Shown here piece by piece: positions 2,337 to 64,000 of a stretch of DNA of 64,000 nt. Within the stretch, counting starts at the first letter, position 1; each line of letters begins with the position of its first letter. Source of the stretch: Pseudomonadota bacterium (GTDB taxonomy: Bacteria; Bdellovibrionota_B; Oligoflexia; Oligoflexales; CAIYRB01); NCBI GenBank assembly GCA_031416315.1, contig JANOTL010000138.1, positions 98,131 to 162,130 of the forward strand. Reading direction: 5' to 3'. The notes under the pieces were generated by a model. That model ran no database searches, was not told the DNA's origin, and was given only the letters and a program-made list of their open reading frames with translations. Both the position numbers and the translations under genes were made by a program.

Positions 2337-3386
2337 ATGCATCTTTTCGACTTGGGCCTCGACGCCCATTTCGCGGGACTCGTCACGCCATCGGAGCAAG
2401 AGTCGCTCGGTCGCGTCGTCGAGACCCAAAAGGGCGGCGCCCTCGTGCAAACGACGGCGGGCACCGTCTGGGCGAAGCCGCGCGGGCGGCTCGTACACAT
2501 GGTCGGCGAAGCCGAGGCGCAGCCAGCGGTCGGCGACTGGGTCGTCCTCCACGGCGGCGCGCAGATTGAACGCATTTTGCCGCGGCGGACGCTCCTGGCG
2601 CGGCAGCAAGTCGGCGAAGGCGGCGCGGAGGCGCAGCTGATCGCGGCGAACGTCGACGTCGTCTTCCTCGTCATGGCCTTGGCGGAAGACTTCAACGTCC
2701 GCCGGCTCGAGCGCTACTTGGCGACGGTCTGGGCCGGCGGCGCGATGCCGGCGGTCGTCCTGACCAAGGCGGACCTCTGTGCGGATCCCGCGCGCTACTT
2801 GGCGCAGGTGCGCGCGGCCGCGCCCGGCGTCCCGGTCGTCGTCGTCAGCTCGGTCACCGGCGAAGGCTTGGCCGAGGTCGAGCGCCTCGCCGAGACCGGC
2901 AAGACCGTCTGCGCCGTCGGCTCCTCCGGCGTCGGCAAGTCGACGCTCGTAAACCGGCTGATGGGCGTCGACGTGCTCGCGACGCAAGGCGTGCGCGAGA
3001 GTGACGGCAAGGGCCGCCACACGACGACCTCGCGCCATCTGTTCACGCTGCCCGGCGGCGCGTTGATGATCGACACGCCAGGCATGCGCGAGCTGATGCC
3101 GTGGGACGCCGAGTCCGGCGTCACGCGAATCTTCGGCGACGTCGAGGACTTTGCCGCACAGTGCCGCTTCAGCGACTGCCGGCACGAGACGGAGCCAGGC
3201 TGCGCGGTACAGGCCGCGCTCGAAGGCGGAGCTTTGACGAAAGATCGCTTCGCCGCCTGGGAGAAGCTCCTGCGTGAGCAGGCGTTCCAGGAGCGGCGCC
3301 GTGACGTTAAGGCCCAGGTCGTGGAGCGTGAAAAATGGAAAAAGATTCACAAGGAGATGCGGCGCAAGCCGCGCGTGAAGACCTAA
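2337..3386 (+). CDS. rsgA: Ribosome small-subunit-dependent GTPase A
   Basis: ATG at 2337 with GAAGGAG RBS. GTPase motifs AVGSSGVGKSTLVN and DTPG. C-terminal zinc-finger CRFSDCRHETEPGCAV is typical of RsgA/YjeQ. Confidence 0.9.
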   Translation: MHLFDLGLDAHFAGLVTPSEQESLGRVVETQKGGALVQTTAGTVWAKPRGRLVHMVGEAEAQPAVGDWVVLHGGAQIERILPRRTLLARQQVGEGGAEAQLIAANVDVVFLVMALAEDFNVRRLERYLATVWAGGAMPAVVLTKADLCADPARYLAQVRAAAPGVPVVVVSSVTGEGLAEVERLAETGKTVCAVGSSGVGKSTLVNRLMGVDVLATQGVRESDGKGRHTTTSRHLFTLPGGALMIDTPGMRELMPWDAESGVTRIFGDVEDFAAQCRFSDCRHETEPGCAVQAALEGGALTKDRFAAWEKLLREQAFQERRRDVKAQVVEREKWKKIHKEMRRKPRVKT

Positions 3387-3513
3387 ATGCCTGATTAAAA
3401 TTAACTATTTGCGCCAGACCGGCCTCAACAAGGCTGGTCTGGTGGCCCATTTCAATCTAATATATGGGCCTGCCGTCCATTCCCGGACCCCGACTCACCG
3501 AATCAAGAGAATT

Positions 3514-5385
3514 ATGTCCAGCAATCTCCGCAACATTTGCATCATTGCCCACGTCGACCACGGCAAGACGACGCTCGTCGACTTCCTCTTGAAGCAAGCC
3601 GGGACCTTTCAAGCGCACGAAACCACGGCCGACCGCATGATGGACTCGGACTCCCAGGAGCGTGAGCGCGGCATCACGATCTCTGCGAAGAACGCCTCGT
3701 TCATGCTCGGCAACGTCAAGGTGAACGTCGTCGACACGCCGGGTCACGCCGACTTCGGCGGCGAGGTCGAGCGCATCATGGACATGGTCGACGGCGCCAT
3801 ATTGCTCGTCGACGCGGTCGAAGGGCCGCTCCCCCAGACCCGCTTCGTCCTCCAGAAGGCGATCGACAAAGGTCTGAAGATCGTACTCTGCATCAACAAG
3901 GTCGACCGCCCGGAAGCCGTCGGCAGCAATATGGTCTCCGAGTGCGTTGACAAGGCCTTCGACCTCTTCGTCGAGCTCGGCGCCTCCAACGAGCAGTGCG
4001 ACTTTCCGATCATCTACGCGTGCGCCCGCCACGGCTGGTGCACGGCGGACATCGACGCGATCCCGACCTATCTGGCCGGCGGGGGCGAGCGCAATCTCAA
4101 GGCGCTCTTCGCCACGATCCTCGCGATCCCGTCGCCGACGGCCAACGTCAACGCTGAGATGCAGCTCCTCGTCTCGAACATCGCGTATTCCGACTATCTC
4201 GGGAACCTCGCCTTGGGCCGGATCGCCGCCGGCAAGGTCCGCAAGGGCCAGGAGCTCCTACGCCACGGCGTGACCGAGACCGGCGCGCCCTCCGTGCAGA
4301 AGTTCTACGTCGCTCGCCTCCTTTCCTATGAAGGCATGAAGCAGGTCGAGGTCGAAGAGATCGGCGCGGGCGACATCGGCCTGATTGCCGGCTCTGACCA
4401 GCTGGAGATCGGCGACACCTTGAGCGGCCCGGCCGGCGTCGCGCTGAAGCGCATCAAGGTCGAAGAGCCGACCATGCGCATGATCTTCTCCATCAACACG
4501 ACGCCGAACTCCGGCCGCGAAGGCAAGGCGATCCAGTCGCGCGAGCTACGTCAGCGCCTGTACAACGAAACGCGCGCAAACGTCGCCCTGCGCCTCGAGG
4601 ACACCGAGCAGCCCGACCAGTTCTACCTCCTCGGCCGGGGCGAGCTCCAGTTCGGCATCCTGATCGAGAAGATGCGCCGCGAAGGCTTCGAGTTCATGGT
4701 CGGCCGCCCGAACGTGCTCTTGAAGAAGGAGGACGGCGTCCTGTTGGAGCCCGTCGAGCGCATGACCCTCGACCTTCCGGAGGCCTTCGCCGGCGAGGTC
4801 ACGCGCATGTACCAGCAGCGCAAGGGCACGCTTCTTTCGTATGAGGCGGCCTCCGCCGCCAGCACGGAAGAGGCTCGCGTCCGCCTCGTGATGGAGATCC
4901 CCACGCGCGGCATGCTCGGCACCAACTCCATGTACAAGACGGCGACGCGCGGCTCCGGCCTCATCAGCTCCGAGTCTGCCGGCTACAAGCCGCACTCCGG
5001 CCTGATCCAGCACCGTCTCACCGGCAGCTTGATCGCCGACCGCTCGGGCAAGACGACCGAATACGCGCTGGCCTCGGTGCAGGAGCGCGGCGTCTTGATG
5101 ATCGGCGAGGGCGTCGAGGTCTACGAGGGCATGATCATCGGCGAATGCGCGAAGGACAACGACCTCGTCGTCAACGCCATCCGCCCGAAGAAGCTCACCA
5201 ACATGCGCACGACCGGCTCGGACGGCATCACCAACCTCTACGGCGTCAAGCAGATGAGCCTGGAGAAGTGCATCGAGTGGATCGACGACGACGAGTGGAT
5301 CGAGGTCACGCCGAAATCGGTCCGCCTGCGCAAGAAGATCCTCGGGGCGCAGCAGCGCGGCTTGCGGAAGACCGAAAGAGACTAG
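3514..5385 (+). CDS. typA: Translational GTPase TypA/BipA
   Basis: [31 protein letters not shown] and NKVDRP G-motifs. Length ~623 aa and full-length collinearity with the EF-G-like fold. The start is trimmed to MSSNLRN. Confidence 0.95.
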
Positions 5386-50562: not shown

Positions 50563-51534
50563 ATGAAGGCGTTCTTCTCTTCCGGTCTGGTCAGGTTCCT
50601 CGGGGGGCGGCTTTTGCTGTCCATCGTGACGCTCCTCGCGCTCGCGAGTCTCACCTTCGTCTTCATGCGCGCGGTCCCCGGCGACCCGCTCACGCGTACG
50701 AAAGAGATCCCGGCCGCGGTGCGCCAGAACCTGGAAGAGAAGTACGGCCTCACCAAGCCCATGTGGCAGCAGTACCTGATCCAGATGGACCGGATGTTCC
50801 TCAAGGGCGACTTTGGGGAGAGCTTCCGGACCGTCGGTCGTAGCGTCAACGCGATGATCGAGGAGCAGTTCCCGCGCAGCGCGATTCTAGGAATCGTGGC
50901 GCTCGTGGTCGGCACGACCGTGGGGCTGCTCCTCGGCATCTTCGCCGCTTTGTATCGAAACTCGCTCATCGACCGGACCGCCATGGTCCTTTGCGTCGTG
51001 GGCATCGCGATTCCGTCCGCGGTCATTGCGCCCGTGATCCAGTACTTCTTCGCCGTCTTCCCGCTCACCAACATGGGCGCGAACCCGGACTTCTGGCTGC
51101 GCCCGGTCGGCTGGGGCCAGACCCGCGACATCATCCTGCCCTCGCTCACCCTGAGCCTCGGCATCATCGCCGTCATGACGCGCTACATGCGCAGCCAGAT
51201 GGTCGACGTCTCCTTCGCCGAATACGTCCGTACCGCGAAAGCGAAGGGCGTTTCGACGCTCCGCCTCGTCGTGCGCCACGAGATCCGTAACGCCATCCTC
51301 CCCGTCATCTCGCTGCTCGGCCCGATCTTCGTCGGCGCCGTCTCGGGCTCCCTCGTCGTCGAGGGCGTCTTCGGCGTCCCCGGCTTAGGCGTCGCCTTCA
51401 TCAACTCGATCAACAACAACGACTACAACGTCCTGATGGGGCTCACCGTCTTTTACGGCGGCTTCTTCATTCTCGTGAACTTGCTGACGGACGTTCTGTA
51501 CGGCGTGATCGACCCCCGGATCCGGGTCGCGTGA
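50563..51534 (+). CDS. Peptide ABC transporter permease (OppB/DppB-like)
   Basis: Six TM. EAA-like loop of binding-protein-dependent permeases. Confidence 0.9.
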   Translation: MKAFFSSGLVRFLGGRLLLSIVTLLALASLTFVFMRAVPGDPLTRTKEIPAAVRQNLEEKYGLTKPMWQQYLIQMDRMFLKGDFGESFRTVGRSVNAMIEEQFPRSAILGIVALVVGTTVGLLLGIFAALYRNSLIDRTAMVLCVVGIAIPSAVIAPVIQYFFAVFPLTNMGANPDFWLRPVGWGQTRDIILPSLTLSLGIIAVMTRYMRSQMVDVSFAEYVRTAKAKGVSTLRLVVRHEIRNAILPVISLLGPIFVGAVSGSLVVEGVFGVPGLGVAFINSINNNDYNVLMGLTVFYGGFFILVNLLTDVLYGVIDPRIRVA

Positions 51535-51548
51535 GCGGCGAGGGAAGC

Positions 51549-53054
51549 ATGAGCAATCGTAAAATCGAAGGTAAAGACTCGCGCGAGCCGGCGGAGCCGC
51601 CGTTCACCGACGCGCAGTTCATGCCCATGCCGCGCGAAGCCGGCGAGGCCGAGATCATCTCGCGCCCGGCGCTGACCTACTGGCAGGACGCGATGAAGCG
51701 TCTGCGCCAAGACAAGCTGGCGATGACTTGCGTCGCGATCATCGCGATGGTCTGTCTCGTCGGCGTGGCCGGACCGTGGTTCTTCCCAGCGGAAGTCGAC
51801 GGCGTCCCGTACGAGAACCAGCAGAACCCGAACAACCTCGACGTCTCGCCCAACTTCGGCGAGAAGTTCGTCGTCACCGAGGACAGCTCGGGCTGGGGCG
51901 AGGACAAGATCGCCGCCAATTTCGACCCAGCCGCCGCGCCGATCCTCTCCGCGGGCCAGATCCCGCCGGTCACCGGCCTCAAAGTCAGCCAAGCCTCGGT
52001 CAACGGCGTCGTCCTCGAGTGGGACTGGATCGCCGGCGTCGCCGGATATCAGATCTATCGCACCGTCATCGAGCGCGACTCGCTGAAAGAGCCGGACCTC
52101 ATCCTCGGCTTGAAGCAGGGATCGCTCGAGCGCGGCATCGCCAGCGGCGAAGCCTCGCAGCCGGGCCAGGTCAGCTACACCGACCGCATGGGCCTCGACT
52201 CCTCCGAGCGCTACGCCTACACCGTCGTGCCCTATATCGACAATCCGAGCACTTTCCAGCGCGAAGAGTCGCAAGCGGCCGGCGTCGTCATCACGGACCT
52301 GAAGCGCACGATCAAGCTGAGCGACGCGCAGCTCCTCATCTCGAACGTCAAGGTCGGCGACGAGATCGCGGGCCGCGCCCATCCGTTCGGCACTGACGGC
52401 CTCGGTCGGGACGTGCTCGCGCGGATGGTTCAGGGCACCCGCATCGACATGCTCCTTGCGCTCCTCGTGCCGACGCTCGCGATCTTCCTCGGCGTTCTCT
52501 ACGGCGCCGTCTCCGGACTCATCGGCAAGACGACCGACGTCATCATGATGCGCATCGTCGAGATCGTGGACAACTTCCCTGATCTTCTCGTCTTCATTCT
52601 GCTGCAGGTCGCCTTCGGCAAAGGCCTCCTCACACTGATCGTCGCGCTCAGCATCTTCAGCTGGGCCGGCTTCGCCCGCATCGTCCGGGGCGAAGTGCTT
52701 CGCCTGCGGGAGATCGAGTTCGTGCAAGCCAGCCGCCTCCTCGGCGCCCCGGTCATGCGCCTCGTCATGAAACACATCGGCCCGAACCTCTTGGGCCTGA
52801 TCATCATCGCCTGGTCCTCGCGGATCCCGAACGTGATCGCGGCCGAGGCTTTCTTGTCGATGCTCGGCCTGGGTCTCGAGCAGCCGACCCCTTCCTGGGG
52901 CAACGTGGTCTTCGACGCCGCGCGCCGCCTGCAGGTGAATCCGATCCAATTCTTCTTGCCGGCCGCGGTGCTCGGCGTGACGCTGCTCGCCTTCTACCTG
53001 CTCGGCAACTCGCTCCGCGACGCGTTCGATCCCAAGCTCCGCGGTCGCGGCTGA
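51549..53054 (+). CDS. Peptide ABC transporter permease (OppC/DppC-like) with ~250-aa periplasmic insertion containing an FN3-like module
   Basis: ATG 51549 (GAGGGAAG RBS), overlapping the stop of the previous gene. First TM, then insertion with LKVSQASVNGVVLEWDWIAGVAGYQIYRT (FN3-like), then the five-TM permease core. Confidence 0.85.
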   Translation: MSNRKIEGKDSREPAEPPFTDAQFMPMPREAGEAEIISRPALTYWQDAMKRLRQDKLAMTCVAIIAMVCLVGVAGPWFFPAEVDGVPYENQQNPNNLDVSPNFGEKFVVTEDSSGWGEDKIAANFDPAAAPILSAGQIPPVTGLKVSQASVNGVVLEWDWIAGVAGYQIYRTVIERDSLKEPDLILGLKQGSLERGIASGEASQPGQVSYTDRMGLDSSERYAYTVVPYIDNPSTFQREESQAAGVVITDLKRTIKLSDAQLLISNVKVGDEIAGRAHPFGTDGLGRDVLARMVQGTRIDMLLALLVPTLAIFLGVLYGAVSGLIGKTTDVIMMRIVEIVDNFPDLLVFILLQVAFGKGLLTLIVALSIFSWAGFARIVRGEVLRLREIEFVQASRLLGAPVMRLVMKHIGPNLLGLIIIAWSSRIPNVIAAEAFLSMLGLGLEQPTPSWGNVVFDAARRLQVNPIQFFLPAAVLGVTLLAFYLLGNSLRDAFDPKLRGRG

Positions 53055-55115: not shown

Positions 55116-55232
55116 TTTTGGCTCGCGCGCTAAGCAGCGGAGTTAACTGGCGTTCGAGCCCGAGCTAATCTCGGCGCCGGCTTTAACCGATGAATTCCCC
55201 TAGAGAGAGTCGTCTTTCAACGGGAACTTCGT

Positions 55233-57332
55233 ATGCCAAACGCATCCGCGTCTTTGCTGCGCCATCTCTTCGTCGCTTTGAGCGTCGGAGGCATGACGTT
55301 CTTCGCGAGCTGCGACTCGGACAAGGTCGCCGATCGCACCGGCTCGGCGGCGTCGACGACGAAGCCCGCGACCGGCGCATCCGCGCCGACCGGCGTGAGC
55401 GATGACGACGACGACGACGATGACGATTCCGGGTCGGAGCCGGGCTCGGCCACGGGAGATGCTTCGGGAACGGACGTCGGCTCCGGAACCGAGGATGCGG
55501 GCGGGACCGATACGGGCACGGGCTCCGGTACGGAAGACGCGACCGGCTCCTTGAATATCGACATCGAGAACGGCGGCGCAGACCCAGAGGCCAACTTCAC
55601 CCCCGAAGAGATGGACGACGCAAGCGCGGTCGCGTTCTTGAAGAGCGCCTGCGCCTCTTGCCACAAGGACGGCGCCGGCAACGACAGCGCCTGGAGCATG
55701 GGCGCGGAAGCCAACATCGTTCCGGAGAAGTACGTCGCGCGCCTCAAATCAGACGTCCAGCTCGACGCCGTGTTCGCCGCGATGGCCAATAAGTTTCTCG
55801 GCATCGAGGCCGCGTCGCCCAAGCCGATGCCGTTCGGCCCGACGCTCGACCTAGAGCTCAAGATGAAGCTCGCCGGCGTCTTGCAGTGGATGAAGGTCCA
55901 ATTCCCCGTGTCCTCGGCGGCCGGCGAGGAGCGCCTCGGCGGCCTCGCGCTCGACCTCAAGGGGCCGAGGGTGTCGAAGCGCTACAAATGCGTCGAAGTC
56001 CCGGACAAAGGCGCGTACTTGCGCCGAGTCATGGCCGACATCTTCGACCGTCCGCCGACGACGTCCGAGAAGGCCAAGTTCTACGCCAGCGTGGCGGAAG
56101 AAGGCGAGCCCGCGGACGCAGAGTACCGCAAGAAGGTCATGAACGAGCTGTTCAAGCCGTCGACCTCTCTGAACACCGAGTTCGACCGCAAGGGTCTTGA
56201 AAAGCTGTCGTCGAAGATCACCGGCGTCACCGGGCTGCGCCCGAACGCCTCCTATGACGCCGACGTCATTAAGGACTTTCAGGCTGAGTTCCTGATGCTG
56301 CTGCGCGCTAAGGTGAAGGAACTCCCATTCAAGGACATCCTCCTGGCCAAGAAAGTGATGGTCTCGAAGAAGACCGCGAAGTTCTACAGCGCGGCGTGCG
56401 AGACAGCGGCCGCCAACCTGAATGACAGCTCGACAAACATCAAGGAACGCTTCGTCGAGTGCGACCTCGACGCCGAGCGCAGCAACTTTTTCGGCACGAT
56501 CCCCTACCTGAACCTTTGGCAGAGCTCGTTCTTAATCAACAACAACAACTACACGCGCATGGCGCACATGTACACGGTGCTGACCGGCGAGGCGCTCAAG
56601 CCGAAAACCGACGGCCCGACCGGCGGCGCCGCGTTACCCGGCGCAAGCTGCCTGAAATCCAAGGACACGCGAGCGAAGCTGGCGAATCCGGATGATCCTA
56701 CGTCCGCCCTCGCCAAGCATGGCACGATCTCCATCCCGAGCGTCGGCATTTTCTGCCAGTCCTGCCATGTCGGCAGGAACCTCGCCAACGGCTCGATCAT
56801 CTTTCGTCCGTTCCACTTGCATGGAGAAAAGCTCACGAAGGTCCTGGTCGCCGAAGCGGTGACGGCCCTCAACATCCCGAACCCGGATCCGGTGCCCAAG
56901 TTCCTGGAAGAAGTGAAGATCGCGACGGAGCCGGGCCGCGTGTTCGTGGACATCGTCCAAAACAAGCCGAAGCTCGTCGAAGTCTCGAGCCCCGATGGCC
57001 TCTTGCGCCTCGCCGCCCTGCTCGACAAGAGCAGCTCCGAGAACGAAGGTTGCGTCGCGACCGTCGACCCCGCCGGCAATAAAGTCGAGAAGAAGATCGT
57101 GACCATCGGCGACCTCACCGCCGAGATCGTCGGCGACGGCAAGATCCTGATCGCTGGCCTTGCTCGCCACATTCCTAGGGCTTTCGGCAACCAATCGGTG
57201 ACCAACCAGGAAATCCTGGCGGCTATGAGCAAGGCGAACACCGAAGGCGGGGGCAAGCTTTACCCGCTCATTCGGGCATACCTCGAGACCGAGTCTTATG
57301 CTTGCGGTCGAACTGCCGAAGCACCGAACTGA
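55233..57332 (+). CDS. Diheme c-type cytochrome lipoprotein (possibly PSCyt/PSD1-type)
   Basis: Lipobox FFASC. Poly-Asp and G/T/D low-complexity linker. Two heme-binding motifs, CASCH (~residue 150) and CQSCH (~residue 505). Confidence 0.65.
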   Translation: MPNASASLLRHLFVALSVGGMTFFASCDSDKVADRTGSAASTTKPATGASAPTGVSDDDDDDDDDSGSEPGSATGDASGTDVGSGTEDAGGTDTGTGSGTEDATGSLNIDIENGGADPEANFTPEEMDDASAVAFLKSACASCHKDGAGNDSAWSMGAEANIVPEKYVARLKSDVQLDAVFAAMANKFLGIEAASPKPMPFGPTLDLELKMKLAGVLQWMKVQFPVSSAAGEERLGGLALDLKGPRVSKRYKCVEVPDKGAYLRRVMADIFDRPPTTSEKAKFYASVAEEGEPADAEYRKKVMNELFKPSTSLNTEFDRKGLEKLSSKITGVTGLRPNASYDADVIKDFQAEFLMLLRAKVKELPFKDILLAKKVMVSKKTAKFYSAACETAAANLNDSSTNIKERFVECDLDAERSNFFGTIPYLNLWQSSFLINNNNYTRMAHMYTVLTGEALKPKTDGPTGGAALPGASCLKSKDTRAKLANPDDPTSALAKHGTISIPSVGIFCQSCHVGRNLANGSIIFRPFHLHGEKLTKVLVAEAVTALNIPNPDPVPKFLEEVKIATEPGRVFVDIVQNKPKLVEVSSPDGLLRLAALLDKSSSENEGCVATVDPAGNKVEKKIVTIGDLTAEIVGDGKILIAGLARHIPRAFGNQSVTNQEILAAMSKANTEGGGKLYPLIRAYLETESYACGRTAEAPN

Positions 57333-57342
57333 GGGAAACGCG

Positions 57343-58197
57343 ATGAAGCTCAGAATGCTCTATGTTTCGGCGGTCGCATTAGCGCTCGTCATCGGTTGCG
57401 GCGACAAAGAGCCGATCCTCGCCGGCAACGGTGGGAAGGCTCCTGGCTCCTCCAGGAAGACCGTGAGCAACGAGGACGGAAGCGGATCGGAAACCGCGAG
57501 CGGAAGCGGCAGCACGCCGGTCATCGTGATCGATTCCAATTCCGCCGAGCCGGTCCCAGCTACCCCGGACCTCGTGCCCGTCGTCGAAGAGCCGACCATC
57601 GGCGAAGACGAGACCCAGGCCGTCGTCATCGACGTCGAGCCGATCGAAGGCCCGTCGTTGCAGGTGAAGAACGTGCTGCTCCTGAGAAGCTCGATTTCCG
57701 CCTGTCTCGATGTCGAGCCGAACAACAAAGCGATCTACCTCGTCGGCCCCGAGACGAAAATCGGCAGCTCGGCGGACCTCGGTATGACCGGCAAGCTCAA
57801 ATTTTACAACGGCTCGTGCCCGACCGGCGGTGACATCGTCGACTGCTTGAAGTCGGACCTCTACAACCCCGCGGCCGTCTCCGGCGACACGGTGGCGGCC
57901 AACGCGCTGACCGCCGGTTATCTGCAGGCGCTCGGCACCGTGGCGAATTTCGTGGCTCAGAACTGCAACGTCGCGGACGCGAACAGCCGCTGCCGCTGCG
58001 AGAAAGAGGACGTCGCAAAGTCCCTGATCTCCTCTTGCCTCCCCTACCTCAAGGGCGATGACGCCACGCTAGCGGCTGAGTATCTGCAGCAGACCTGCGA
58101 AACGACCTCAACGGCCGAGGACAAGATCAACTTGGCGCGGCGAATCGGCATCGCTAACCTCCTTGGATCCATTGCTTTCGCCGTCTCGCGCGAATAA
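57343..58197 (+). CDS. Hypothetical lipoprotein, Cys-rich C-terminal half
   Basis: ATG with GAGGGA RBS. Lipobox VIGCG. Ten Cys residues in the C-terminal 150 aa. Confidence 0.5.
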   Translation: MKLRMLYVSAVALALVIGCGDKEPILAGNGGKAPGSSRKTVSNEDGSGSETASGSGSTPVIVIDSNSAEPVPATPDLVPVVEEPTIGEDETQAVVIDVEPIEGPSLQVKNVLLLRSSISACLDVEPNNKAIYLVGPETKIGSSADLGMTGKLKFYNGSCPTGGDIVDCLKSDLYNPAAVSGDTVAANALTAGYLQALGTVANFVAQNCNVADANSRCRCEKEDVAKSLISSCLPYLKGDDATLAAEYLQQTCETTSTAEDKINLARRIGIANLLGSIAFAVSRE

Positions 58198-58209
58198 GGA
58201 AGCACCGTC

Positions 58210-59889
58210 ATGGCCAAGAAGAATCTCGATTTCGTTCTGCGTGATCGCCGCGAGTTCTTTAAGCTGAGCTCCGCTCTGGGACTCGGCGCCGCGACTTGGG
58301 CCCATGTGCCTTGGCTCGCGAATCGCTATGTGGCGCCAACGGTGGCCAGCCTCTACGACGCATTCAACCGCTCAGCCCTCGCGCAGAGCGTCGACGGCTT
58401 CGACTACTTGGTCGACGCTGCCAAGGGCGGCCTCTCGCTTTTGCGCTTCACCGAGACCGCGCAGGCCGCGGTCGAGGATGAAGAGATTTACTACGTGAAC
58501 ATCAACGTGACCTGCGGCATCTCGCCGAAGTTTTTCACGATTTTCGAGGCGGAGAACGCGGCCGGCCTCAAGGGCGGGTTGCTTGCCCCCGGTAATGCGG
58601 CCAACTTTCCGAACACTCTTCAGTACCTCAAAGATACCGGCCTCGAGAAGATGACGACGATCGACCGCTTCAAGCCGATGCGGATGACCGAGTGGTTCTC
58701 GCAAATCCTCATGCACGGCACGAACGACGGCAAGGACATCGGGACGACGGCGAGCGTCCTCGACAAGGTCAAGCCCTACATCGCGCCTTTCACGGACGAG
58801 GCCCGGATCCAGATCGCCCACGCTTTGACGGGCGGCGTCTCGCACATCTACAGCTCCTTCCAGCTCACGGGCGGCGGCGACATCAACTACGAGATGCAGA
58901 AGGGCGGCTTGTACAGTCCCCTTCAGCTCCTTTGCTTCGGCTACCCGGTGCTCCTCCCCGGCGACGACGACCTCAACTCCGGCAACAACAAGATCCAGGG
59001 CCCAGGCGGCTCGGTTCTCGTTCCAGCCAAGACGACGAACAACTTCGTGCAAACAATCAACCAGCTCGTTGCCGACTCATTCCTCTCCACCGACAAGTGC
59101 GCGGAAAACAATATCATCTGCTCTTTCGACAAGCTGGCGCGCAGTCGAGACGCGAACGAGCTGCGCAACACGATGCTCGAAAAGCTCGATTTGATCCGCA
59201 CCAAGATCAAGACGATGGGGCCCAACATCGAAGGCGTCGCCAATGCGACGGCGGTGCGCGACGAAGCGATGGCCCTGCATTCGGTCACGACCACCCGGGC
59301 GCAAACGACCCCGCCGACCAACTTCGCGAGTATGGACTTCATGTCGCAGATGGTCGCCTGCTGCGAGCTCATGACCAACTTGGATGCGTACCGAAACTTC
59401 TCTTGCCATCTCAACATCGTTGACCTCGACGGCCGGAAGTACGATGCGAAGGATGACCCCGAGGCGATTCCCCACGGCCACAACTACGTCAACGGCCACC
59501 GTCAGCTGGCGATCGCTCTCAACATGCTGGGGACACTGATCAAGCGCACCGGCAAGAAGATTTACGTCACCGTCAGCGCCGACACGGGTCGCGCGGTCTC
59601 CGGGGTCGATGCGGTGGGCTCGACCGCGATCCTCATGGCTCCAAAGTCGACGAAGCTGAAGGATGCCTACGTCTATTACAACGACACGGCATTGACCACG
59701 AATGACGGCGCCGCCGCGGATCCAAGCTCAAATCCGGCTATCTGGGGCAAGGACCTTCGCGACCAGGCAGACGCCGCCGACACGACGAAGCCGACCTCGT
59801 TCAAGGCATGGGCGGCCGGCGTCTACCACTTCATCCTGGGCAAGCGCATGGCCAACGAGCCTTACGTCAAGATCAAGAAGGACGCCTGA
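58210..59889 (+). CDS. Tat-exported hypothetical protein
   Basis: Twin-arginine signal DRREFFKLSSALGLGAATWA. 559 aa. Begins 13 nt after the lipoprotein gene. Confidence 0.55.
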   Translation: MAKKNLDFVLRDRREFFKLSSALGLGAATWAHVPWLANRYVAPTVASLYDAFNRSALAQSVDGFDYLVDAAKGGLSLLRFTETAQAAVEDEEIYYVNINVTCGISPKFFTIFEAENAAGLKGGLLAPGNAANFPNTLQYLKDTGLEKMTTIDRFKPMRMTEWFSQILMHGTNDGKDIGTTASVLDKVKPYIAPFTDEARIQIAHALTGGVSHIYSSFQLTGGGDINYEMQKGGLYSPLQLLCFGYPVLLPGDDDLNSGNNKIQGPGGSVLVPAKTTNNFVQTINQLVADSFLSTDKCAENNIICSFDKLARSRDANELRNTMLEKLDLIRTKIKTMGPNIEGVANATAVRDEAMALHSVTTTRAQTTPPTNFASMDFMSQMVACCELMTNLDAYRNFSCHLNIVDLDGRKYDAKDDPEAIPHGHNYVNGHRQLAIALNMLGTLIKRTGKKIYVTVSADTGRAVSGVDAVGSTAILMAPKSTKLKDAYVYYNDTALTTNDGAAADPSSNPAIWGKDLRDQADAADTTKPTSFKAWAAGVYHFILGKRMANEPYVKIKKDA

Positions 59890-59892
59890 CGC

Positions 59893-61212
59893 TTAAGGAA
59901 TGACGCCTTCCGCGAGGCGGAGCGCTTCGCCCGCCAGGGCGAAGAACTTCATCTCCCTGGCGGCGCCGGCGTAAGCGTCGTGCGTCGGGTCGTTCCAGGC
60001 AAGGGCAAGGCAACCCGCGGCGCCGGCTCGCGAGCGTAGCCCGTACGTCATGTGGATGACTCCGGGCTCCGAGCCGCCTTTGTAGCCCGCCCAGGCCCAG
60101 TGCGAGCCTTCGCGGCCCGGCGCGACAAAGGGCGTATTGGCGCCCAAGATTTCGACGAGGTGCGCATCGCCACGCGCGGTGAGCCAGCGCATGGCGGCGC
60201 ACGTCTCGCGCGTCGACGCGAACCATTCGATCGTGTCGATCAGCTTCGGCGTCAAGAAGCAGCGGGGCTCGATACAGATGGCTTCCCTGGGCTTCGTGGC
60301 TAGCTCAGCGAGGATGGCGTTGCGCTCCGCCAGCGTCCCGAACACGTACCGCGTCGCGCGCGTAGCGTCATCCTCAAGCCATTTCAGCTTGAACGCCTCG
60401 ACAGTCGAGAGAAAGGGCGCGTTTCCCGGGTCCGCGTTGTCGAGACCCATCACGCGCGCGTGCGCCGCGACCGCGTCCCGGCCGAGATAGTGCAAAAGGT
60501 GGTCGGTGGCGGTGTTGTCGCTGTCGGCGATCATCTTGCGCGCGTACTCGAAAACGCCGGCCTGCGATCCCGCGGGCCAAAGATGCATCTCGCCGCTGGG
60601 GAGCGACTTCCAGTCTTCGCGGATTGCGAGCGGCGTCGTCCACGAGAAGGTCGAGGGAATCGTCGTCCACAGCGTGCCGAGGATCCACAGCTTGAAGGTC
60701 GAGCCGATCGCGAGCGGCTCCTCGTCTGCCACGCTCGCCGCGGCGCCGGGTGCGCCGTCGAGGCTCAGATGCAGGCTTGTTTGACCGCCGAGAGCTTCCA
60801 GCGCCGCCGCGAGCGCGGCCGGCGTCTCGAGATGAAGGCGAGGATCGTCGGCGTCGACGATCCGGAAGCCGTCGACCAGGCCCGCTTCGTCGACGTGCAG
60901 CGAAACGAGGATCGCGCCGCCGGCGTCGGTGTCGAAACGCAACAAGTTGGCTTCGACAAGGCTCGACTTGCTGCAGGCGCCATACTCGCGCGCGAAACCG
61001 GCGAGGTAACGCTCGAGCTCGGCCGGCGTGACGATCGCGCGCACTACTGGGGCGAAGGTGGCTTCGAAGTCGATCTCGGGCGCGAGCGTCGTGGCGGCAC
61101 AGATCCGCTCGCCCTTCTCGAGGAGGTCGGCGGCGGCGTCGGCGCGGGCGGCGGGCGCCGGCAGCGCGGCGCCGACCGTCAGGGTCAAAGCCATGCGGGA
61201 CAAGGCGTTCAT
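59893..61212 (-). CDS. Secreted serine hydrolase, class-A beta-lactamase-like, with N-terminal extra domain
   Basis: Signal peptide. STFK (SxxK), SDN and KGG motifs in class-A order and approximate spacing. ~150-aa N-terminal extension. Confidence 0.45.
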   Translation of the reverse strand: MNALSRMALTLTVGAALPAPAARADAAADLLEKGERICAATTLAPEIDFEATFAPVVRAIVTPAELERYLAGFAREYGACSKSSLVEANLLRFDTDAGGAILVSLHVDEAGLVDGFRIVDADDPRLHLETPAALAAALEALGGQTSLHLSLDGAPGAAASVADEEPLAIGSTFKLWILGTLWTTIPSTFSWTTPLAIREDWKSLPSGEMHLWPAGSQAGVFEYARKMIADSDNTATDHLLHYLGRDAVAAHARVMGLDNADPGNAPFLSTVEAFKLKWLEDDATRATRYVFGTLAERNAILAELATKPREAICIEPRCFLTPKLIDTIEWFASTRETCAAMRWLTARGDAHLVEILGANTPFVAPGREGSHWAWAGYKGGSEPGVIHMTYGLRSRAGAAGCLALAWNDPTHDAYAGAAREMKFFALAGEALRLAEGVIP

Positions 61213-63353: not shown

Positions 63354-63701
63354 TCAAGTTCGCCGCGCTTCCTCGCGCAGCGCGGCTTCGGCTTCACCGA
63401 AGGCGACGTTGATCCGAAGGAGCAGCGCGGGCGCGTCCTCGATCGCGCGTTCCCGGCACCGCCGCTCCAGCGTGACGCAAAGATCTCGAAGCTGGGTCGC
63501 GCCGATCGTGGCTGCCGTGCCGGCCATCGCGTGGGCAGTCATGCGCAAGCGTGTCGAATCGCCGTGCGCGAGCCCCGCGGCCAACGCGTCGAGGAGGGCG
63601 CCGCAGCGGGCGGTGAAGAGGAGGATTTGCTCGTCGAAGAAGGGGTCCTCCGGAATCGACAGACTCTTCAGGTCGTCCACGATGCGAGGATCCAGAATCA
63701 T
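63354..63701 (-). CDS. Hpt (histidine phosphotransfer) domain protein
   Basis: Start trimmed to MILDPRIV. HAMAGTAATIGA fits the Hpt HxxKGxxxxxGA helix. Overlaps the upstream REC-domain ORF by 4 nt. Confidence 0.55.
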   Translation of the reverse strand: MILDPRIVDDLKSLSIPEDPFFDEQILLFTARCGALLDALAAGLAHGDSTRLRMTAHAMAGTAATIGATQLRDLCVTLERRCRERAIEDAPALLLRINVAFGEAEAALREEARRT

Positions 63702-64000
63702 CGAGCTTTCTCCTTGAGATGCGTCCCGAGGCAGCGGCGGAGCTCCTCGAAGCGCAGTGGTTTCAAGAGCACTTCGTCCATGCCGGCCGCGTGGCATGCG
63801 TCTCGGTCCGCTTGGAAGACGTCGGCGGTGAGGGCGACGATGCGTAGCTCCGGGTCTTTGTTGTCTTTGCGGATTTGCCGCGTCGCCGTGAGGCCGTCCA
63901 TCTCGGGCATCTGGCAATCCATGAAGATGAGGTTCGGTTTGTGCCGCGTCGCGAAGTCGACGGCCTCGGCGCCGGAGCACGCGACCTTCACCTTAAAGCC
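63698..64000 (-). CDS. Response-regulator receiver domain (C-terminus of a gene continuing beyond the window, likely hybrid histidine kinase)
   Basis: LIFMDCQMPEMDG, ALTADV and KP motifs of REC domains. ORF is open to the window edge. Confidence 0.7.
   Translation of the reverse strand, partial: GFKVKVACSGAEAVDFATRHKPNLIFMDCQMPEMDGLTATRQIRKDNKDPELRIVALTADVFQADRDACHAAGMDEVLLKPLRFEELRRCLGTHLKEKAR

Follow-up and report, generated by a model that had tools for sequence, protein, structure and literature searches.

A conserved three-gene cassette encoding a dihaem lipoprotein cytochrome, a cysteine-rich lipoprotein and a twin-arginine-exported protein, and its possible relation to PSCyt/PSD cytochrome modules

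We report on three co-directional genes, here called A, B and C, in a 64,000-nucleotide (nt) stretch of DNA from a Pseudomonadota bacterium (contig JANOTL010000138.1 of assembly GCA_031416315.1; the whole stretch is referred to as the window). On balance we favour the interpretation that A-B-C is an autonomous, operon-like cassette for a periplasmic envelope complex, and that it represents a divergent three-gene variant of the modules in which a PSCyt/PSD cytochrome is paired with a partner exported by twin-arginine translocation (Tat). This interpretation builds on the conservation of gene order, haem motifs and cysteines, on the export signals carried by all three products (two lipoprotein signals, in A and B, and one Tat signal, in C), on the distant relationship between A and PSCyt/PSD proteins and on the independence of the cassette from the opp genes that precede it in the window. 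Judged from the sequences, the three products probably constitute a periplasmic redox complex.

The three genes are tightly spaced (Table 1), as stated in the first-pass annotation of the window, although the gaps are 10 nt (A-B) and 12 nt (B-C) and not the 11 and 13 nt given there. Putative ribosome-binding sites are located 5' of B (GAGGGA) and 5' of C (AAGGAAG), which together with the short gaps is consistent with a single transcript for A-B-C. A longer open reading frame (ORF) for B, starting at 57298, was considered and rejected since the homologues and an independent gene call begin at MKLRML.

The signal peptide and lipobox of A are followed by a low-complexity tether with a run of nine Asp residues (residues 57-65) and a G/T/S/D/E-rich linker that extends to approximately residue 115, in agreement with the poly-Asp and G/T/D linkers noted at first. 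Neither the sequence nor the length of the tether is kept among homologues. The lipoboxes of A and B were read from the sequence, and the lipobox Cys of both is kept in close homologues; in A homologues generally, a hydrophobic N-terminal segment leads up to a Cys, and a loose lipobox pattern matches 23 of the 46 full-length members. The two CxxCH motifs that had been recognised in A, CASCH (residue 140) and CQSCH (residue 508), are 368 residues apart (the earlier estimate was approximately 350). From the Cys and His composition of A approximately 0.002 such motifs are expected, and a chance origin of the two observed can thus be rejected. Conservation within the A family was counted in an alignment of 47 members. 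The haem 1 residues C140, C143 and H144 are each present in 46 of these, while M199-P200 and the haem 2 residues C508, C511 and H512 are present in all 47. C140/C143/H144 together with the invariant M199-P200 match what is expected of a class-I cytochrome c with His/Met ligation, and haem 1 is probably ligated by His144 and Met199. For haem 2 there is no invariant distal His or Met; H646 is present in 36/47. Six further Cys residues (253, 389, 410, 473, 607 and 691) are invariant or nearly so and likely form three disulfides, which would fit an envelope protein; E352, Y385, R442, R480 and R525 are also invariant. An AlphaFold2 model of residues 116-699, based on the 47-sequence alignment, has a predicted local distance difference test score (pLDDT) of 91.3 and a predicted template modelling score of 0.88. 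Both CxxCH motifs are positioned in well-modelled helices (pLDDT 86-96 for the helix block of haem 2), i.e. in conserved and confidently modelled regions and not in disordered linkers. The model has no relative among the solved structures in the PDB, and a search of PDB sequences with A gave nothing significant (best match CcoP, E 0.014).

To place A among known cytochromes we used Pfam profiles. Cytochrome_CBB3 matches 38 of the 47 family members (best E 9.8e-8), and A of the window scores 18.6-19.2 bits against it, under the Pfam cutoff of 27. The first-pass annotation had suggested a compact form of the DUF1549/DUF1553 type of PSCyt/PSD cytochrome together with a sulfatase-like DUF1501 partner. 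Searches with the profiles for these three families gave no match at gathering threshold, and DUF1553 and DUF1501 were unmatched even at E<=10. Specifically, PSCyt2/DUF1549 (PF07583) scores 17.6-17.8 bits against A (cutoff 29.8; E ~0.004, residues 251-303), where the match spans only profile positions 15-63 of 209 and is seen in 4/47 members at E<=1; PSD1/DUF1553 (PF07587) is absent at E<=10 from A, from fragments of A and from the 47 members. PSD4/DUF1592 matches below threshold at approximately residues 340-385 (E 0.003-0.09; 3/47 members), PSCyt3/DUF1588 has a best E of 0.058 below its gathering score (2/47), PSCyt1 matches one member of the 47 (E 0.033) and PSD2 has no Pfam match among the family members. 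The sub-threshold matches recur in the correct N- to C-terminal order PSCyt2/PSD4/PSCyt3.

Profile-profile comparisons were performed using local hhalign. The reference PSCyt/PSD and partner sequences were retrieved from annotated plasmid records with pseudo-consensus queries, and their identity was confirmed by the annotation of the matches and, for a sample of them, by Pfam (E 1e-8 to 1e-98). The A family aligns with a 7-sequence DUF1592 core at a probability of 93.3% (P=2.7e-7) over 147 columns, from PSD4 to the start of PSCyt3. Collinear with the PSD4 match, the second CxxCH region of A aligns with the CxxCH of PSCyt3 (P=3.4e-3) and, collinear with both, the C-terminus of A aligns with PSD2 (P=0.014); the controls in the DUF1592-core run gave P=0.1-0.6 and all cross-family controls 0.1-0.97. 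Against the DUF1553 set the values are 86% and P=5.5e-6. Here the N-terminal domain of A aligns with the PSCyt1-type N-termini of DUF1553 proteins (78%, P=1.9e-5) such that CxxCH, MP and W coincide, with M199-P200 on the 'MP' of PSCyt1, and the middle domain aligns with the PSD1 region (P=2e-3). By these comparisons A is distantly homologous to the PSCyt/PSD superfamily, with a core nearest to the DUF1592 type, and it belongs to no current Pfam family. Its link to the DUF1592/PSD4-PSCyt3 type is, on the same comparisons, stronger than that to DUF1549/DUF1553. Hence, on sub-threshold Pfam matches and hhalign, the proposal of a compact PSCyt ('planctomycete-specific') cytochrome with a Tat partner was upheld in general outline, while the DUF1592 core replaces DUF1549/DUF1553 as the closer relative.

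The closest architectural analogues are compact Sphingobium proteins of the DUF1592 type (PSD3/DUF1587-PSD5/DUF1595-PSD4/DUF1592-PSCyt3/DUF1588-PSD2/DUF1585), which adjoins a Tat-signal DUF1552 protein with the motif HXXSHH; an example is WP_169802872.1 (536 amino acids, aa) with WP_062793095.1 on plasmid pMSHV of Sphingobium herbicidovorans. These proteins and A are alike in compact size (536-564 aa with one CxxCH in Sphingobium; ~580 aa in A once the tether is left off), in having a conserved CxxCH at the corresponding place downstream, in an 'S-x-x-F' C-terminal helix region collinear with PSD2 and in the presence of a Tat-signal protein of 440-560 aa nearby, which in the window is the next gene but one. 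In contrast to the DUF1592 type, A has an N-terminal class-I cytochrome c domain, a lipoprotein tether, extra residues inserted between its PSCyt3-like part and its PSD2-like part and six conserved Cys, the lipoprotein gene B is intercalated, and C has neither detectable DUF1552 homology nor HxxSHH. With the PSCyt1-PSCyt2-PSD1 (DUF1549/DUF1553) proteins, which are paired with DUF1501 as for example on Catenovulum, Chondrinema and Haliscomenobacter plasmids (PMC3542564), A appears to share the N-terminal CxxCH...MP...W module followed by the motif 'RR-x-x-x-D-x-x-x-R/G-x-P-T-x-x-E', and the cassette shares the Tat-exported neighbour. However, those proteins are 960-1120 aa long and often carry Laminin_G or other binding domains, whereas A has 699 residues, and their modules comprise two genes and not three, with a partner that C does not recognisably resemble. 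Like class-I cytochromes c (Cytochrome_CBB3/Cytochrom_C, e.g. CcoP), A has a CxxCH at a helix end and an invariant Met-Pro ~55 residues downstream, but such a domain accounts for only ~110 of its 699 residues.

In the annotated plasmid records DUF1553 proteins adjoin DUF1501 and DUF1592 proteins adjoin DUF1552. On pMSHV (locus L017, 6240-7351) a cytochrome c gene and then a cytochrome b/b6-domain gene come directly after the compact DUF1592/DUF1552 pair, which fits an electron-transfer role for this type of module. On a Miltoncostaea oceani plasmid (NZ_CP064357.1; locus L025, 1-2010) a DUF1800 gene is located directly upstream of a DUF1501 gene; DUF1800-DUF1501 is a third kind of pairing between a helical protein and a Tat partner.

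The A family is real but rare. Word-indexed searches with A and with C returned no more than three relatives apiece, while an exhaustive HMMER search of 1.84 billion representatives with the A-family profile retrieved 112 clusters or proteins, of which ~55 are full length at 25-34% identity; the large DUF1592 and DUF1549 families were not among the matches. A subfamily of short A proteins (P0071-P0098; 414-454 aa) has N-termini that by eye are lipoprotein-like, and keeps only the second CxxCH. At one locus with a short A (L009, GCA_031416935.1; genes at 3-857, 892-2232, 2261-2908 and 2943-4268) a separate gene upstream of A has a cytochrome c domain at its end (Cytochrome_CBB3, E 1.8e-4). That the short subfamily keeps haem 2 only argues that the haem-2 core defines the A family and that the N-terminal cytochrome is an add-on.

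B is located between A and C at every cassette locus. It starts with MKLRML. Its lipoprotein signal, with the lipobox at VIG-C19 (...LALVIG-C19), is followed by a low-complexity tether that varies and then by a C-terminal domain of ~180 aa that is conserved. Of its nine Cys, C219 and C252 are invariant in eight homologues and C208, C217 and C232 are mostly kept; the C-terminal motif reads VAHNC-x(4-7)-C-x-C...RC-x-P...C...IA-x-L-I-G-S-Y-A-F-A. B has no match in Pfam, NCBIfam or the PDB, and hhalign detected no similarity to any of the reference sets or to A or C.

The twin-arginine signal reported for C is borne out. At its N-terminus DRREFFK is followed by LSSALGLGAATWA, which fits an S/T-R-R-x-F-L-K-like motif with a hydrophobic stretch, and Pfam TAT_signal gives weak matches in C homologues (E 0.0015-0.025). 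Apart from the RR pair, the residues invariant in seven homologues are H212, R319, G408, D412, G429, R431, G460-R461, D467 and P478. C has no match in Pfam, NCBIfam or PDB sequences; in C, six homologues and their consensus Pfam gave no DUF1501 (PF07394) match at E<=10 and no DUF1552 (PF07586) match, and tblastn of C against plasmids gave nothing at E<=10. An hhalign match between C and DUF1501 (P=1.4e-3) was rejected since the signal was due to the Tat signal peptides (-norealign); after trimming P was 0.08-0.14, and the comparison stayed non-significant when five more DUF1501 sequences were added. DUF1501 and DUF1552 were matched to one another in that test at a probability of 94-96%. At the sequence level homology of C to the known Tat partners is therefore unsupported, and so is the first-pass likening of C to a sulfatase-like DUF1501 protein. 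The best, non-significant alignments of C to DUF1501 and to DUF1552 share a C-terminal strand-helix-strand segment that ends in S-D/E-x-G-R, which we regard as a lead and not as evidence.

The tightly spaced order A-B-C is present in the window and at seven other loci (L001/L002, L003, L004/L005, L008, L009, L010 and L020) with pairwise identities of ~17-56% and different flanking genes. A pattern scan of GTDB genomes identified only one other cassette locus and two pattern scans of JGI metagenomes identified none; two further contigs with A homologues end too early to show B-C. Upstream of A in the window, Pfam identifies five genes (SBP_bac_5, two BPD_transp_1, one of which with OppC_N, and two ABC_tran plus oligo_HPY), which constitute a bona fide Opp/Dpp-type ABC importer that ends 117 nt before A, i.e. 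the cassette is indeed located downstream of opp as first described. At the seven other loci no opp genes adjoin the cassette. Upstream of it there are a Kelch-type protein, divergent genes, a methyltransferase, FliD/FliS or a cytochrome c gene, and sensor kinases are also found among the flanking genes. Seven unrelated contexts without opp argue that the cassette is autonomous and that its proximity to opp in the window is incidental at the family level; the question whether it is part of the peptide-uptake operon, raised in the first-pass annotation, is thereby answered in the negative. In this genome there may nevertheless be read-through transcription from opp into A, because a pattern scan of the 117-nt gap between oppF and A found no sigma-70-like promoter and no intrinsic terminator.

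The three most distant loci have genes without Pfam match just downstream of C (L003 6264-7532, minus strand; L008 6578-7624, minus; L010 14865-16196, plus). These are mutually homologous (tblastn E 1e-22 to 1e-55), and a second pair of homologous post-C genes without Pfam match (tblastn E 1e-6) is found at L008 7630-8586 (minus) and L010 13450-14841 (plus); none of these genes has a counterpart in the window. From their sequences and positions the post-C genes of these loci may be additional components in some lineages. Sensor kinase genes (HisKA/HATPase_c) come directly after the cassette at L001 5018-5818 (minus) and L008 4853-5920 (plus), and receiver- and Hpt-like ORFs occur in the window at ~63354-63991 (minus), 3.5 kb downstream of the cassette. 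A regulatory link between the cassette and such genes is possible on this positional evidence.

We infer complex formation, the direction of electron flow and any catalytic role along the following lines. The lipid anchor and the flexible acidic linker would tether A to the membrane. Its N-terminal class-I cytochrome c (haem 1) is fused to a probably disulfide-stabilised core of ~450 residues with haem 2 (C508/C511/H512), and it is this core that is distantly homologous to PSD4-PSCyt3(-PSD2) in proteins of the DUF1592 type. C takes the genomic position held by DUF1552/DUF1501 in the known modules; it would be exported folded via Tat, possibly with a metal or cofactor, and would bind or transform a periplasmic substrate. 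The haem-2 core of A would dock with C, haem 1 would relay electrons, in one direction or the other, between A and soluble carriers of the periplasm or the respiratory chain, and B, as a family-specific lipoprotein subunit, would anchor or scaffold the complex.

Several points weigh against a relation to the PSCyt/PSD modules and the scheme built on it. The evidence on the A-B-C family consists of sequence comparison and a predicted model. No Pfam gathering threshold of the PSCyt/PSD families is reached by A or its family, and the reference alignments are thin (3-9 sequences), which makes positive and negative profile results both soft. Trimmed C is non-significant in hhalign against DUF1501 (P=0.08-0.14) as well as DUF1552 (P=0.33-0.43); by direct reading it lacks HxxSHH, having AHALTGGVSH in which only H212 is invariant, and AlphaFold2 gave an unusable model of C from a 3-sequence alignment (pLDDT 30). 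The known PSCyt/PSD modules with a Tat partner have two genes and no counterpart of B, and the divergent A homologue P0061 is not followed by B-C. Moreover, while the PSCyt/PSD cytochrome families are each encoded beside a Tat-signal partner, their functions are stated to be unknown (PMC3542564, PMC5615132).

We have considered whether A-B-C instead is an unrelated, stand-alone new envelope system, such that A resembles PSCyt/PSD proteins only in what cytochromes c share in general and in some helical motifs, while C and B have new folds that are evolutionarily unconnected with DUF1501 or DUF1552 and the arrangement is convergent. This we regard as conceivable but rather doubtful. It would agree with the failure of C and B to match Pfam, NCBIfam or PDB sequences, with the non-significant comparisons of C with DUF1501 and DUF1552, with an exhaustive A-profile search that gave 112 proteins and not the large DUF1592/DUF1549 families and with an A model that has no PDB relative. 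However, the top hhalign match (P=2.7e-7, 147 columns) is in the non-haem PSD4 region, away from the CxxCH, the weaker matches are collinear with the order PSD4-PSCyt3-PSD2, and the best alignments of C to DUF1501 and to DUF1552, non-significant as they are, fall on the same C-terminal 'S-D/E-x-G-R' region. Only tentatively, and with rather little confidence, we would also suggest that A-B-C is an undescribed three-component periplasmic haem enzyme system in which C and B represent new folds or families and haem 2, without distal ligand and amid invariant Tyr, Arg and Glu residues, is catalytic.

The remaining explanations concern A and the neighbouring importer. That A itself is the enzyme, e.g. 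a peroxidase- or MauG-like dihaem protein with a catalytic five-coordinate haem 2 that oxidises or matures a partner (Cys-rich B or Tat-exported C) or takes a small periplasmic molecule as substrate, while C is non-catalytic, appears unlikely: haem 2 has no invariant distal His/Met (H646 in 36/47), invariant polar residues are available (E352, Y385, R442, R480 and R525) and the mono-haem short subfamily keeps only haem 2, but comparison with Pfam and the PDB shows no likeness of A to CCP/MauG or other peroxidases, and the idea is compatible with the explanation we favour and does not exclude it. Very improbable, in our view, is a role of A-B-C as accessory parts of the upstream opp operon, e.g. 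in periplasmic peptide processing coupled to transport, even though the cassette is on the same strand, 117 nt downstream of oppF, with no recognisable terminator or promoter in the gap; opp genes adjoin the cassette at 0/7 other loci, and A, B and C have no peptidase-like or transport-like domain.

Table 1. Coordinates of the A-B-C cassette and its features in the window, and product sizes at other cassette loci (aa, amino acids; ORF, open reading frame)
Feature	Position	Strand	Remarks
oppF-to-A spacer	55116..55232	+	117 nt, from ORF coordinates
Gene A	55233..57332	+	699 aa ORF; dihaem c-type cytochrome lipoprotein
A signal peptide and lipobox FFAS-C27 (...MTFFAS-C27)	55233..55313	+	read from translation
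A low-complexity tether, residues 28-115	55314..55577	+	D9 run and G/T/S/D/E-rich stretch
A haem motif 1 CASCH (C140-A-S-C143-H144)	55650..55664	+	N-terminal class-I cytochrome c domain
A M199-P200	55827..55832	+	probable distal Met ligand of haem 1 (role inferred)
A haem motif 2 CQSCH (C508-Q-S-C511-H512)	56754..56768	+	core domain
Gene B	57343..58197	+	284 aa ORF; small Cys-rich lipoprotein
Gene C	58210..59889	+	559 aa ORF; Tat-exported protein
C twin-arginine motif D-R-R-E-F-F-K	58243..58263	+	RR pair invariant in 7/7 homologues
L008 cassette			A 576 aa, B 245 aa, C 542 aa
L010 cassette			A 826 aa, B 327 aa, C 610 aa
L020 cassette			A 641 aa, B 224 aa, C >401 aa (contig end cuts C)
L009 cassette, short variant			A 446 aa, B 215 aa, C 441 aa

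Some features of the surrounding DNA were also recorded. Within the importer, the gene at 51531-53054 (plus) encodes an OppC-like permease of 507 aa in which OppC_N (aa 49-101) is separated from the permease domain (aa 321-504) by ~220 residues that contain Fn3-like sequence (…VVLEWDWIAGVAGYQIYRT…); this stretch has no Pfam call at E<=1e-5, and judged from the sequence the ABC permease may have acquired an additional periplasmic domain here. A convergent gene (59893-61212, minus), 3 nt beyond C, encodes a secreted protein of 439 aa with a Beta-lactamase2 domain (E 1.5e-13), and the L004 lineage has a syntenic counterpart at 2873-3463 (minus) with 50% identity. The guanine-plus-cytosine content of the 64-kb window is 61-69%, with the cassette at the low end (61-62%). 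In the whole window a tRNA scan predicted 0 genes and an Rfam scan 0 families at gathering score.

Few gene pairs of unknown function have expanded as much in Planctomycetota, Verrucomicrobiota and certain other bacteria as those of PSCyt/PSD and DUF1501/DUF1552 genes (PMC3542564, PMC5615132). Compared to these, A-B-C looks like a minimal, lipoprotein-anchored and rare offshoot, and the A type, B and C represent three protein families outside the coverage of Pfam and NCBIfam. As to annotation, A-B-C is best kept apart from the opp operon, and the label DUF1501 should be avoided for C. With a confidently modelled part of ~580 residues in A, only two haems and no carbohydrate-binding add-ons, the cassette would be convenient for heterologous expression, haem spectroscopy and reconstitution of the complex. 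The importance of the cassette would rise if the module is experimentally tractable, or if C or B have new folds. To our knowledge, the superfamily of PSCyt/PSD proteins with Tat partners, with thousands of genes in Planctomycetota, Verrucomicrobiota and other phyla, has had no assigned function since 2004. If A-B-C is a three-component haem enzyme, it would, being a small and tractable member, provide a first experimental handle on this whole superfamily.

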